DNA from: a virus
Taxonomy: Duplodnaviria > Caudoviricetes
Direction: 5' to 3' (one strand)
DNA: 64,000 nt
Virus record (IMG/VR): IMGVR_UViG_3300022876_000002
The position numbers and the translations under genes were made by a program. Positions within the stretch are counted from its first letter, which is position 1; each line of letters begins with the position of its first letter. Below the pieces are notes generated by a model. The model was not told the origin of the DNA. It saw only the letters and a program-made list of their open reading frames with translations, and did no database searches. Of this stretch, positions 845 to 26,900 are shown one piece after another.

Positions 845-3052
845 TTAAGTGTTAGGTTGTTCGTCGGCACGTTGGAGCATTTCTTCCAGCACCTGATCCT
901 TGATCATGTTACTCGCATTAACGTCGAAGACATCCAGCGAACGGTCAGAAGCCAGTTCTTCACGCAGTGCATAACCCGAGTCAGACATCATGCTCGCTGA
1001 CATCTGTACCGCCACGTTCATATCGTACTCATCCGGCTTGACGATGTAATCAATGTCAAACGGATCATCTGCCCGCAAGATACGACGGGTAGCACGGGTA
1101 CGCAACTCCGGAGAGTTAGCCAACGCCAGGTTCTTGTTGATCTCTTGCGGACCAGACTGGCTATTGGTCAGACGTGCTTCGGTTTCACCTTTGTTACGGT
1201 TCGGTTTGTTCTGCAAGATATCCGAATACTTGTGCATGTCATTCGGCTTAGTCGGCATACCGTAAATGTTCGACAACGGCAGTGACTGTGCAGACATATC
1301 AGTACCAAACTTATCCAGCAACATGAAGTGCTGGTTGGTAATGAGTACCGGTTGGTCAGACATCACTTCCTCGTTGAGTGAGTCTGTAAAGATAATGCGT
1401 TCTGGTTTGTAGCTATATACCTCGCGCAATGCGCGGATGATCGCTACGCCATACAGTTTAGTGTCGGATACTACTTCAACACTGATCTGTGTCTTGCAGA
1501 CGTGGTCAACGAACTCTTCGATAACCGCCGGGTCAATGATTGCATCCCGTACCAGGTCCCCGAACTCTGGGAAACCTGTGTCGAAGAACTCTTGCAGCTT
1601 GAGGAACGCTTCGCCGTAATTACCAACCTTACGCAGCTTGATGACATCTTGCTGCAGGCGCATGCTGATAAAGTTGACCGACTGCTCCAGCAACATCGAG
1701 AAAATCTGACGACGGAATGCTGGGATGTTGTTTACCACGATGTCGGCAATGGTCCCGTCTGCATAACGAGGTGCCATATGACGTGGGATGATCCGAACGA
1801 TTACCCCTTTGTCACCGTTCATACCGGTCATCTTGAACTTGACCCGACCTGGAACCATTTCACGCAAGGTGATGTTGATATTCCAGTCTTTCAGTTTAAC
1901 GCGCTTATACCCACGGAACAGTGGGTTGATTTTACCCATGACACTACGGGTATAGTTGGCAAATGCAAAGCGCACGAAAGTGTCAAGTGTGTTGGACACC
2001 GGAATGTCTACACCGGCATTAGTCGACAGCTTATTATGGTACCAACGGATTACCGCGTTCCACATGTCGTTCTGACGGCGCTCATACCGATCCAGCTGCT
2101 TGGTATGCGTCTGCTCGATGTAATCAGTAGACCGATTGTTACTACGGTCTTTCATACGCTCACTGATTACTTCTACCGCCATTACTTCCGAGTTAATCGG
2201 TGCGCGGAACAAGACGTCGTGGTTAAGGTCTGGTGTACGCAGTGCCTTCTTGGTCAACGTGGTAAGTGCAGTCTTGCTATTGCGCTTACGGAAGCCCATC
2301 ACGATGCCGTCAGGACGGATACGCTCACCAGACTCTGGCAGCACCTTCGGGTTCTCGTCAGTACCGTTCAACAGCAACGGTACGTACTCGTCCTCATTAT
2401 AACTGAAACCACGAGTGTGCTTGAACATGCACTTGAGCTTTTCAGTCGCAGCCCAGTCGGTGATCGCAATACCGTCCTCCTCGTTGTAGTGGAAGCTACC
2501 AGCACAAACCTTGAGGTTCATACCGAACATCCACTCACCGGTCTTACTGACCCGAGGTGATTGACCGAAAATAGTACCCTTGGCAAATCGTGCACCTTTC
2601 TCGATCCGTGCCATTACCGCTGGATCGTAAACGTACTCGAAGCCGATATAAGTGTTCTGTGTGTTGTACTTAGGCAGCTCCAGAATGTCATAAGCGTTAA
2701 GCTCATCGTTCTTAAAGAGCAACCACATCGAACTCCACTTGTCAGTGATCTCCCCGCCTGGGTTAGGGCTATGTACGTAGAACACTTCTTCCACGATCAT
2801 GTTAGATGGCGCTTCAATGCGACGAGCGCCTTCCGAGTAGTTATACTCAGCCCCCGAAATCAGTGCACGCTCACTACGCCCATTGGTATCCACCGACTTC
2901 GGGATCATGTTACCGACCATGTACATACGAGTCGGAGAAGATACCCACGGGAACACTACCAGGTTAATACCAACCCCTTGTAACTCGGGGATCATTTCGT
3001 TTTCACGTTTAAGGTATTGATACTTGGCCTGGCTTAGATCTATCTTACCCAT
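845..3052 (-). CDS. non-virion RNA polymerase beta-like subunit, C-terminal part (phiKZ gp71-73-like)
   Basis: 735 aa. Beta-subunit motifs YNEEDGIAI and KFKMTGMNGDKGVI...ADIVVN (equivalent to GDKMAGRHGNKGVI...DIVLN). Position fits the nvRNAP block. Confidence 0.9.
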   Translation of the reverse strand: MGKIDLSQAKYQYLKRENEMIPELQGVGINLVVFPWVSSPTRMYMVGNMIPKSVDTNGRSERALISGAEYNYSEGARRIEAPSNMIVEEVFYVHSPNPGGEITDKWSSMWLLFKNDELNAYDILELPKYNTQNTYIGFEYVYDPAVMARIEKGARFAKGTIFGQSPRVSKTGEWMFGMNLKVCAGSFHYNEEDGIAITDWAATEKLKCMFKHTRGFSYNEDEYVPLLLNGTDENPKVLPESGERIRPDGIVMGFRKRNSKTALTTLTKKALRTPDLNHDVLFRAPINSEVMAVEVISERMKDRSNNRSTDYIEQTHTKQLDRYERRQNDMWNAVIRWYHNKLSTNAGVDIPVSNTLDTFVRFAFANYTRSVMGKINPLFRGYKRVKLKDWNINITLREMVPGRVKFKMTGMNGDKGVIVRIIPRHMAPRYADGTIADIVVNNIPAFRRQIFSMLLEQSVNFISMRLQQDVIKLRKVGNYGEAFLKLQEFFDTGFPEFGDLVRDAIIDPAVIEEFVDHVCKTQISVEVVSDTKLYGVAIIRALREVYSYKPERIIFTDSLNEEVMSDQPVLITNQHFMLLDKFGTDMSAQSLPLSNIYGMPTKPNDMHKYSDILQNKPNRNKGETEARLTNSQSGPQEINKNLALANSPELRTRATRRILRADDPFDIDYIVKPDEYDMNVAVQMSASMMSDSGYALREELASDRSLDVFDVNASNMIKDQVLEEMLQRADEQPNT

Positions 3053-25144: not shown

Positions 25145-25452
25145 AACCCCACCCAATACCCCTAGACCAGGCGACAGTGTCGGCTAGGATCAGGGCATTG
25201 AGCAGGGGGAGGTTTTCTTTGGTTGCCTCAACAGCACAACCCAACCAGCGAATAACTAGGCAGACGATTACTGGTTGTTGCCTTAGGACCTCCTAACCTT
25301 TGGCAGGGGCAGGGGCTACAGCATGGGTCGAAGATACAAAGGAAGAGTGACGTACCAATTGAGAGGCACACCGGCCAGCAAACCTGACAACGGGTACATC
25401 ACTCTGACTAGGCAAGCGAGGGCAAGCTTAGTCTACACGGCCGCTAGGTCCA
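25145..25452 (-). ncRNA. candidate structured ncRNA (3' block of the RNA locus)
   Basis: No credible ORF. Several stems, including AGAGUGAUGUACC/GGUACGUCACUCU whose U-G pair works only on the minus strand. Followed by a T-tract at about 25130-25140. Confidence 0.45.
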
Positions 25453-25456
25453 TGTT

Positions 25457-25532
25457 TGGCTCCACGTCCTGGATTCGAACCAGGGACCAACAGATTAACA
25501 GTCTGCTGCTCTACCGACTGAGCTAACGTGGA
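25457..25532 (-). tRNA. tRNA-Asn(GTT)
   Basis: Canonical 76-nt cloverleaf TCCACGT...CT GTT AA...TTCGAAT...ACGTGGA G CCA. Confidence 0.96.
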
Positions 25533-25540
25533 AGAAATAT

Positions 25541-26111
25541 TGACGGTCCATTCGGGCTTTTACCGCACTTACTCATGAGCTTGCGGCTCAAGGGGGTCCG
25601 ACCGTCCGGGCGCCGAGTGCTTTCTTTACCTACCAGGGTTCCTTGATCAATGGTCCTTTGTAGGTTAATATGTTGTTCGACCTGGTAAGGGGGAAGGGAG
25701 GCTCGTTTTATCCCCCGACTTGGACCCATGCACCGTATGGACTACTGGGCGGCTCCTTTTAGTGTAGCCCGGCTGTACCCTACCGTCTTTCCACCAGATC
25801 AAACAAACTCTTAAATAAAGTATCCGTTCGCCACACCCGCGTTATTCGCATTCCGCAAGCGCGTCATGTACTTACATTCCCGTTGCCACGGATCACAGCA
25901 AAGCACGCAGAGCGCGCTAGCACGGGAAAGAGTCCCCCTAGGACTTCTTGTGTGGGCGGCTTGCGCAATGCAAAGCCGCCCTGCGAGCCAACCTGACCGT
26001 CGGCTAAATGCCAGCAACAAGGTACCGTGACGAACCTTGTTGCCGGACTAGGTGTGTGTTCCTCAGCGCCCTTCGCCGCCCACAGCGCACCACCTTTGCT
26101 GAGGGACACAC
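25541..26111 (-). ncRNA. candidate large structured ncRNA (middle block)
   Basis: About 570 nt with no credible ORF and dense GC-rich helices with GNRA-type loops, located between two tRNA elements. Confidence 0.5.
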
Positions 26112-26114
26112 ATT

Positions 26115-26254
26115 TGGTAGAGAGTACACGATTCGAACGTGTGGGCCCATAAGTGTCGTTGGCCGACACCCTGAGCACATCCGGTTTCATGTAAGGCCGC
26201 CCTAGGGTACGCCCACAATCCTCCAGACTCCTTAAACCACTCGGACAACTCTCT
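26115..26254 (-). ncRNA. tRNA-like RNA with 38-nt anticodon region and 37-nt variable arm (class II, Ser(UGA)-like)
   Basis: Perfect acceptor AGAGAGT/ACTCTCT, A73 and encoded CCA, D arm TCC-GAGTGGTTTAA-GGA, T arm ACACG-TTCGAAT-CGTGT; 140 nt in total. Confidence 0.8.
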
Positions 26255-26434
26255 GTTAACTTTGTATAACATAGGAAATCGGGACGGATCCCAGGGTAGA
26301 GCCCTGGTCTTACGCCGTAAGCATACGACGCATTATGGATCGCCCTCCGTCTTGAGGCTTTTCTTCCCTAAGTCTAGCCAACCCTGACGGCCGTTAGGCT
26401 AGAGAGTTAACCGCAACCCGGGTTTATCCAAATA

Positions 26435-26520
26435 TGGTGCGAGAGACGGGCATCGAACCCGTATGGCCAGAAGCCGACAGATTTTAAGTCTGTTGTGTAT
26501 ACCAATTCCACCACACTCGC
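26435..26520 (-). tRNA. tRNA-Leu(TAA)
   Basis: 86-nt class II cloverleaf with anticodon arm ACAGA-CT TAA AA-TCTGT, variable arm, TTCGATG T-loop, A73 and CCA. One T-T mismatch in the acceptor stem. Confidence 0.92.
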
Positions 26521-26559
26521 AAAACACACCGTTACATATCATAACCATGTGTAGTAAAA

Positions 26560-26900
26560 AGATAAGAGGAACTGCTCCAGATTGCGACATCCTTCACAAT
26601 CCCTCTGTCACCTAGACCTCGGTAATAGTGTTAACCCTTTTACCGCCGTAAAGGCCCGCCTCATCAAACTCTCTGCTCACAACCATGCTGCCGGCCAGAT
26701 CGAAATCACAGGGCGGTCAGCACAGAAGAAGCCCAGTAGGAAAGTTTGGGTGACTTAGTGGGTTTGACGTTCCACTCATAGGTTCTGCTTAGAAAAGCTT
26801 GTCATCGCGATTCATCGCATCATACAACCACCGGCTCCACCTTAAGGTTCCGGCTGATCTCCTCAATGGGAGAATTCGGTTTAGGCGTTAACAATCACAC
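26560..26900 (-). ncRNA. candidate structured ncRNA (5' block of the RNA locus)
   Basis: No credible ORF. Multiple hairpins (TCTCC-CATTGA-GGAGA, AGTGG...CCACT, TGCTG...CAGCA enclosing GAT-TTCG-ATC) and a possible closing pair TGTTAAC/GTTAACA. Confidence 0.4.

Follow-up and report, generated by a model that had tools for sequence, protein, structure and literature searches.

A family of interrupted tRNA-Ser(UGA)-like RNAs in a clade of soil jumbo phages

The stretch of viral DNA studied here (IMG/VR record IMGVR_UViG_3300022876_000002; 64,000 nucleotides (nt), called the window throughout) carries on its minus strand, from 26254 to 26115, a tRNA-shaped RNA of 140 nt with an anticodon loop of 38 nt. 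Six diverged types of this RNA occur in related phages: all are interrupted at the same site of the anticodon loop, and all keep their cloverleaf pairs. Judged by its sequence, the family is a tRNA-Ser(UGA) gene with a hairpin insert of 31-35 nt on the 5' side of the loop, after position 31 or 32. We tentatively favour the view that it gives a processed and stable tRNA mimic that does not decode, possibly still serylated.

Anatomy, relatives and selection

RNA position p corresponds to window position 26255 - p, and the parts of the element, all on the minus strand, are as follows.

26248-26254, RNA positions 1-7: 5' strand of the acceptor stem, AGAGAGU, paired over 7/7 base pairs (bp) with 26119-26125
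26229-26245, RNA positions 10-26: D arm, UCC-GAGUGGUUUAA-GGA, in the style of a type-II tRNA
26223-26227, RNA positions 28-32: 5' strand of the anticodon stem, UCUGG, partner of 26180-26184
26185-26222: 'anticodon loop' of 38 nt, with AGG(AU) conserved on its 5' side, an imperfect hairpin (UGUGGG...CUUACA) in the middle and (U)GAAA conserved on its 3' side
26180-26184, RNA positions 71-75: 3' strand of the anticodon stem, CCGGA
26143-26179: variable region of 37 nt, a two-tier hairpin with outer helix GCUCA/UGGGC and inner GUGUCG-GCCAA-CGACAC
26126-26142, RNA positions 113-129: canonical T arm, ACACG-UUCGAAU-CGUGU
26115-26125: 3' strand of the acceptor stem, ACUCUCU, discriminator A73 and an encoded CCA

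A first-pass annotation of the window had described this anatomy (a 7/7-bp acceptor stem, D and T arms, A73, CCA, the 38-nt loop and the 37-nt variable arm), and our reading of the sequence agrees with it in each part. U8 directly follows the 5' strand of the acceptor stem. The D arm has a 3-bp stem, UCC/GGA, and its GAGUGGUUUAA loop includes A14 and G18G19, as is typical of tRNAs with a long variable arm (type II). The anticodon stem UCUGG/CCGGA counts 5 bp, one of them a G-U pair. With U8, A14, G18G19, C48, U54U55C56 and the loop UUCGAAU all present, and with a cloverleaf that covaries among relatives, the RNA has the body of a canonical tRNA. What it lacks is an anticodon loop of 7 nt with U33: its own loop counts 38 nt, and the best loops that excision could leave are CAUGAAA or AAUGAAA.

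Standard detectors pass over the element. Default ARAGORN calls only tRNA-Asn and tRNA-Leu in the locus; it calls no transfer-messenger RNA, which would combine a tRNA-Ala-like domain with a tag frame, and low-threshold calls of that kind elsewhere in the locus are spurious, since they run through tRNA-Asn. The Rfam tRNA model RF00005 does not match the element at its gathering threshold (29 bits) or at E<=10, and no Rfam ribozyme or intron matches it even at E<=10. With introns allowed and a relaxed threshold, ARAGORN returns a weak parse as tRNA-His(gtg) with a 43-nt intron; we dropped it, as its stem GUCUG/CAGGG is not conserved in the relative L010 or in the other types. Folded as a single sequence, the whole RNA has an unexceptional energy (z -1.09); the variable region alone reaches z -2.19, and the insert of the window copy shows no signal (z +1.5). 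A long-range pairing of UGUGGGC in this insert with GCCCACA at the end of the variable arm was also abandoned, having no counterpart in L010. Given silent detectors and an unremarkable folding energy, the case therefore rests on comparison. The detector scores that the first-pass annotation had proposed as a check thus came back negative for default ARAGORN and RF00005, while a covariance model of our own did find relatives.

Among the genes of the window are a PhuZ-like tubulin and the divergent family-B DNA polymerase known from phiKZ-type phages. The closest cultured relative is Pseudomonas phage EL (62% polymerase identity), and the window therefore belongs to a nucleus-forming, EL-like jumbo phage that is uncultured; the sequencing runs in which it occurs come from soil. 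An identical copy of the element is found in another IMG/VR record, G001. A search through the PhuZ gene led to a phage with 73% PhuZ identity, in whose tRNA cluster a copy 72% identical to the element lies right after tRNA-Asp (L010:4562-4704). The covariance model R1, built from two copies (the window type and L010) and run on 25 EL-like contigs, returned a third form of 122 nt (G003/G004), and pattern scans of IMG/VR and of JGI metagenomes added three further types. The resulting six types, recovered with E values from 1e-25 to 1e-50 by the model made from two copies, come from phages whose DNA polymerases are 75-100% identical to that of the window.

T1: window, 140 nt
T2: L079, 140 nt, 2 substitutions from T1
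T3: L076, 138 nt
T4: L010, 143 nt
T5: L075, 151 nt
T6: L070, 122 nt

BLAST of the element against 50,697 GenBank phages gave no homologue. Model R1 has no match in phages EL, vB_PQ1 and RisingSun, nor in 22 of the 25 EL-like IMG/VR contigs, and the insertion pattern was not found in GTDB genome contigs. Within these collections the RNA family appears confined to one clade of soil jumbo phages. A match to a looser pattern, L085, proved a false positive inside a coding region. A pattern of the D arm and anticodon stem matched only tRNA-Tyr genes of Solirubrobacterales: it is a motif shared by type-II tRNAs and no clue to the host.

The six-type alignment shows how strictly the cloverleaf is kept. 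All 167 pair cells, spread over 29 cloverleaf pairs, are standard (100%), against 86.6% for shuffled partners and 30-51% for slid partners; the alignment was fitted to the model, and the slide control is nonetheless clear. Both sides have changed in 12 of the 29 pairs: four of five in the T stem, seven of nine in the helices of the variable arm (5/5 in the outer, 2/4 in the inner) and one of five in the anticodon stem, whose first pair is U-A in four types and G-C in two. Since all pairs are kept and 12 are compensated in six types, the RNA is under selection and is not decaying. This bears out the selection on an L-shaped scaffold that the first-pass annotation had read from a single copy. 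The same annotation had named relatives with a normal tRNA beside a randomly decayed copy as the finding that would speak for decay; the six types recovered are all interrupted, and none shows decay.

Other parts are frozen. The acceptor stem is invariant over the six types except for A1, which becomes G1 (a G-U pair) in L070; the three pairs of the D arm do not vary, its loop changes at one position only (U/G), and the T loop is invariant. Because the acceptor stem and D arm stand still while other helices covary, we infer a partner that reads their sequence; most plausibly this would be seryl-tRNA synthetase.

Descent from tRNA-Ser(UGA) and the interrupted loop

The origin of the family is best seen in L070 (T6). 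This type has an ordinary Ser-type variable arm of 14 nt, and its 42-nt loop ends in ...CUUUGAAA. When 35 nt are removed in silico, default ARAGORN calls a tRNA-Ser(tga); among the six types, such an excision yields an ARAGORN tRNA for L070 only. As L070 becomes a perfect tRNA-Ser(UGA) in this way, the family derives from tRNA-Ser(UGA), a link that the first-pass annotation had drawn from the loop of the window copy: that loop ends in ACAUGAAA, its 3' (U)GAAA carrying the UGA-AA remnant of a Ser(UGA) loop. With type-II tRNA-Ser(UGA) the element also shares the acceptor stem, a 3-bp D stem with a GAGUGGUU-AAGG loop, the T arm and the tertiary nucleotides. It differs from it in a loop of 38-42 nt instead of 7, in a variable arm of up to 45 nt, in A33 in the window's clade, in an A or a G at position 73, and in that RF00005 does not score it.

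The insert occupies the identical site in all six types, and no uninterrupted copy with this D arm and anticodon stem was found in IMG/VR. The insertion therefore predates the split of phages whose polymerases are now 75% identical. In constrained folds of the six types, the insert always forms an imperfect hairpin, made of a stem, an internal loop and a terminal hairpin; RNAalifold of subgroups indicates that it is kept through G-C/G-U swaps and a few compensatory changes. The junction is more constrained in sequence. On its 5' side stands N-G-G, with A-U next in five types; on its 3' side stands G-A-A-A, with a U before it in five. Both NGG and GAAA are invariant, and in the constrained folds they face each other in a purine-rich internal loop of 3x4 to 5x5 nt. 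Readings of this junction as a hammerhead, a hairpin ribozyme or a K-turn fail by inspection at the required GA or CUGANGA positions, with Rfam silent on them. Searches for a second site in the window that shares the motif (GGAT...TGAAAC) stayed at chance level.

Positions 32-34 drift among types: the loops end in ...CAUGAAA in T1-T3, ...GUAGAAA in T4 and ...UUUGAAA in T5 and T6. The variable arm, its hairpin lengthened, reaches 33-44 nt in five of the six types, and the variable region ranges from 14 nt in L070 to 45 nt in L075; T3 has a UUCG tetraloop. Four types have A at position 73, the other two G. CCA is encoded in T1-T3 only, the 3' tails being G-UCU in L010, G-CCU in L075 and A-CCU in L070.

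Mimic, spliced tRNA or processing signal

In the reading that we favour, the gene would be transcribed together with the phage tRNA cluster and its transcript processed like a tRNA: RNase P would make the 5' end and host trimming the 3' end, CCA being added where it is not encoded. The product would fold into a normal L-shaped core. Set on the internal loop of NGG opposite GAAA, the hairpin would turn the anticodon arm into a closed rod, and the variable arm of most lineages has grown far past that of any known decoding tRNA; with both features, the mimic would be unlikely to work on the ribosome. It could instead serve as a tRNA-shaped ligand, for example to carry seryl groups or, as a sponge or decoy, to occupy host factors that bind tRNA. 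Its binding partner might be a synthetase, a transferase or a defence nuclease that targets tRNAs. Phage tRNA genes are now considered to take part in the contest with immune nucleases that cleave tRNAs. Charging with serine could persist because seryl-tRNA synthetase does not read the anticodon.

The first support for a non-decoding RNA comes from position 33. The loop of the window's clade ends in ACAUGAAA, so any 7-nt loop built from its flanks has A33; this base is fixed in T1-T3, while T1 and T3 still differ by compensatory changes. In contrast, the tRNA-Asn of the same clusters keeps its CUGUUAA loop unchanged while its stem covaries. The first-pass annotation judged the RNA probably non-decoding, and A33 fixed in three types strengthens that view; its underlying statement on the window copy, that excision leaves no U33, holds for T1-T3 (CAUGAAA), and T4-T6 would have U33 after excision. 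Its further argument, that A73 is not the serine discriminator, is right about the base and weaker than implied, as position 73 is A or G across the family. Serine identity in Escherichia coli tRNA relies on a long variable arm, G73 and a serine anticodon. A long variable arm and a UGA or AGA remnant are present in the family, with A73 in four types and G73 in two.

The variable arms point the same way: to our knowledge, at 33-44 nt they are longer than in any tRNA that decodes. The normal tRNAs of these clusters encode CCA, which the element does only in T1-T3; this is a weak point against decoding, because the tRNA-Ser of phage T4 lacks an encoded CCA too. A CCA-adding enzyme was not detected in the relatives searched, including the complete genomes G003 and G002.

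Several non-decoding tRNA mimics are known, among them the species 1 and 2 RNAs of phage T4, the YrlA Y-RNAs that act with Ro60, the t-elements of plant mitochondria and the 'non-proteinogenic' tRNAs of cell-wall synthesis. Like them, the element is tRNA-shaped and would be kept for a job other than decoding, and some of them lie in phage tRNA clusters; it has no sequence or Rfam relation to any of them. Unlike in YrlA, its 5' and 3' ends form a true acceptor stem, and unlike in cell-wall tRNAs, its anticodon loop is closed off by a hairpin. YrlA (RF02553) had no match in our Rfam scan, and the TROVE/Ro60 domain (PF05731) is absent from five related phage records.

It is possible, if on the whole unlikely, that the gene is instead an intron-containing tRNA-Ser. 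An endonuclease of the host, or an unrecognised one of the phage, would cut both strands of the NGG/GAAA loop and a ligase would reseal the halves, which the tRNA body holds together. With similar reserve, the spliced product can be pictured as a decoding tRNA-Ser (UGA, or AGA in L010), freed of an intron at 31/32 or 32/33 that is of neither the group I nor the bulge-helix-bulge kind. Much in the loop agrees with splicing. Removing 35 nt from L070 or 34 nt from L075 leaves a perfect U-U-UGA-A-A loop, the former being the one called tRNA-Ser(tga), and the invariant 5' GG and GAAA resemble splice-site signals. The invariant acceptor stem and D arm are consistent with aminoacylation identity, and the complete genome G003 has no other tRNA-Ser.

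Some observations also weigh against the mimic that we favour. G35-A36-A37-A38 are invariant, and where position 34 has changed, from U to A in L010 alone, the anticodon still specifies serine. An excision that spares one 5' loop base would leave T4-T6 with U32-U33, as in a spliced decoder; the conserved NGG/GAAA loop could explain this pattern as well. The sequences of the inserts drift freely while the hairpin form stays, as in introns, and the variable arm of L070 is perfectly normal.

Against splicing stands the same A33, present in any 7-nt loop (CAUGAAA or AAUGAAA) of T1-T3. No single register yields U33 in all six types: a shift by one base gives U33-GAA in five and fails in T4. In a bolder variant of the splicing reading, this shifted register, U33-GAA-A37, would set a phenylalanine anticodon on a serine-type body in five of the six types, and such an RNA could recode. 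Variable arms of 33-44 nt, which we do not know from decoders, and the rarity of UCA, at 4% the least used serine codon in the open reading frames (ORFs) of the window, speak against a decoding product. Nor were splicing enzymes detected: RtcB (PF01139), Rnl2-type ligase (PF09414), the 2'-5' ligase family (PF13563) and the tRNA-intron endonuclease (PF01974) are absent from G001, G002, G003, G005 and G006. These searches covered phage genomes, of which the complete G003 carries the gene and the complete G002 lacks it; host RtcB, RNase III or other nucleases may bear on splicing, which is a further point against the mimic. The search for T4 Rnl1 (PF09511) was uninformative, its control being silent.

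Metatranscriptomes bear on neither side. The locus (window 25400-26600) occurs in 20 soil metatranscriptome libraries from 20 studies, and in four runs it lies on long contigs with k-mer depths of 175-580, in colinear pieces of ~7.9 kb with no joints. The window may itself stem from the longest of the near-identical records, which measure 46-69 kb. Assembled contigs do not display rare or small RNAs, and DNA carry-over is possible, so that these contigs neither show transcription nor exclude splicing.

Comparison with known introns places the insert apart. Like the protein-spliced introns of archaea and eukaryotes, it counts tens of nt and lies in the anticodon arm, and its exon halves would be held by the tRNA body. 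In the bulge-helix-bulge motif that marks the exon-intron junctions of such introns, a helix of 4 bp stands between two bulges of 3 nt; here the junction is an opposed internal loop in all six types, with no such motif. Like the group I introns of cyanobacterial tRNA-Leu(UAA), the insert interrupts the anticodon loop of a bacterial-type tRNA gene. Group I introns exceed 200 nt and have a conserved P3-P8 catalytic core (Rfam RF00028), whereas this insert has 31-35 nt and no Rfam match. Eukaryote settings of tRNA detectors place introns at the canonical 37/38 site. A precedent is found in Lak megaphages, whose tRNAs carry short 'enigmatic' introns, predicted with eukaryote settings and existing beside intron-less alleles (Devoto et al. 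2019, PMC6784885). As in those phages, the inserts are short, do not look self-splicing, sit in the anticodon loop of tRNA genes of very large phages and are conserved in relatives. Unlike there, the insert is on the 5' side (31/32 or 32/33), no intron-less allele was found and half of the types would be left with a non-canonical loop. A new tRNA splicing route, with a hairpin intron at the 5' side of the loop marked by NGG/GAAA and with enzymes unrelated to EndA/Sen, RtcB and T4-type ligases, seems to us rather improbable.

We regard as decidedly unlikely that the gene is a mere processing signal, or t-element. Its tRNA shape would then draw in RNase P and 3' nucleases, which would divide the long, structured transcript of the locus into functional pieces, and the tRNA-like piece would have no role beyond this. 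Its surroundings would suit that role: the ~1.8 kb around the gene are free of ORFs and rich in hairpins, a long hairpin begins 2 nt past its 3' end (as in L076, with a different sequence), and the neighbouring blocks are reordered in relatives, as modules would be. The shape needed by RNase P and RNase Z does not explain the invariance of the acceptor stem and D arm, the NGG/GAAA loop or the long anticodon and variable arms, and the ordinary tRNAs of the cluster could punctuate the transcript equally well. Finally, a tRNA-Ser pseudogene disabled by the hairpin is scarcely credible and, on the alignment, can be set aside for practical purposes: failing default detectors, A33, the oversized variable arm and the CCA lost in some relatives fit it, but the six diverged types keep 100% of their cloverleaf pairs, 12 of which are compensated, the T loop, D loop and tertiary nucleotides are intact, and phages with 75% identical polymerases share the insertion.

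Genomic setting and significance

The element lies within ~1.8 kb that hold no credible ORFs and are made of hairpin-rich blocks, between tRNA-Leu and tRNA-Asn. The features around it are the following.

25457-25532, minus strand: tRNA-Asn (ARAGORN and the Rfam tRNA model)
26435-26520, minus strand: tRNA-Leu(UAA) (ARAGORN and the Rfam tRNA model)
26260-26283, minus strand: upstream motif CCCGAUUUCCUAUGUUAUACAAAG, ending 5 nt before the RNA, a possible phage promoter
26053-26112, minus strand: hairpin with a stem of ~15 bp, beginning 2 nt past the CCA

The upstream motif of 24 nt (CCCGAUUUNCUAUGUUAUACAAAG, window 26260-26283, minus strand) occurs once in the window and recurs, nearly identical, directly upstream of tRNA-Asp in G003 (L072). 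Possibly it serves the RNA cluster as a phage promoter. At the position that follows CCA, L076 has a hairpin of unrelated sequence, so that structure rather than sequence is kept, and L010 a shorter one. A second hairpin motif, UAGCC-(N)-ACGG(C)CGUCAGG(G)U-(N)-GGCU, recurs on both sides of the tRNA-like gene (window ~26365-26397 and 25985-26010, minus strand) and is found in relatives as well (L010:4775-4795, L072). Its position relative to the gene varies between phages, and the non-coding blocks therefore look like shuffled modules.

Adjoining tRNA-Asn, window 25540-25790 (minus strand) is a conserved structured RNA block with no match to an Rfam family. Part of it, 25690-25790, has counterparts of 78-82% identity in the tRNA clusters of distant jumbo phages (Pseudomonas phages Psa21, D6 and HPP-Temi and Erwinia phage pEa_SNUABM_9), where the matching stretches are unannotated or 'hypothetical', and window 25455-25672 is 88% identical to L010:5057-5275. 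In G001 an extra tRNA-Gln(UUG) (L001:1319-1395) stands between the stretches that match window 25300-25482 and 25455 onward; the window is without it, and tRNA content thus differs between 99%-identical genomes.

Other unusual tRNA genes accompany the family. The sister phage G002, which has no Ser-like gene, carries at L071:780-867 a tRNA-Tyr(GUA) that scores 47.5 bits with model R1 and resembles the Ser-like gene in its acceptor stem GGAGAGA, D arm and A73; the likeness hints that type-II tRNA genes in these phages have undergone exchange or share an origin. Further aberrant tRNA-like genes lie 3' of tRNA-Asn in EL-like relatives (L071:2080-2164, L010:5280-5363, L072:868-956 and 966-1050, minus strand). 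They combine normal acceptor, D and T arms with odd anticodon regions: a 12-nt loop, an 8-nt CGAAUGGU loop without U33, and loops of 18-19 nt with an inner hairpin. Their RF00005 scores are 40-55 bits.

Large phages repeatedly yield tRNA genes with unexplained insertions, and aberrant or intron-like tRNA genes of very large phages are thus already known, if unexplained. New here are the insertion site on the 5' side, the NGG/GAAA junction, the expansion of the variable arm that goes with them and the unusually good comparative support. The family offers a clean comparative case, with six diverged versions, strong covariation, a fixed insertion site and, in one member, a tRNA-Ser that is perfect but for its insert. 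Were the RNA spliced, it would point to a non-canonical pathway of tRNA splicing in bacteria or phages; were it a mimic, it would define a class of ribosome-excluded, possibly aminoacylated tRNA look-alikes from nucleus-forming phages.
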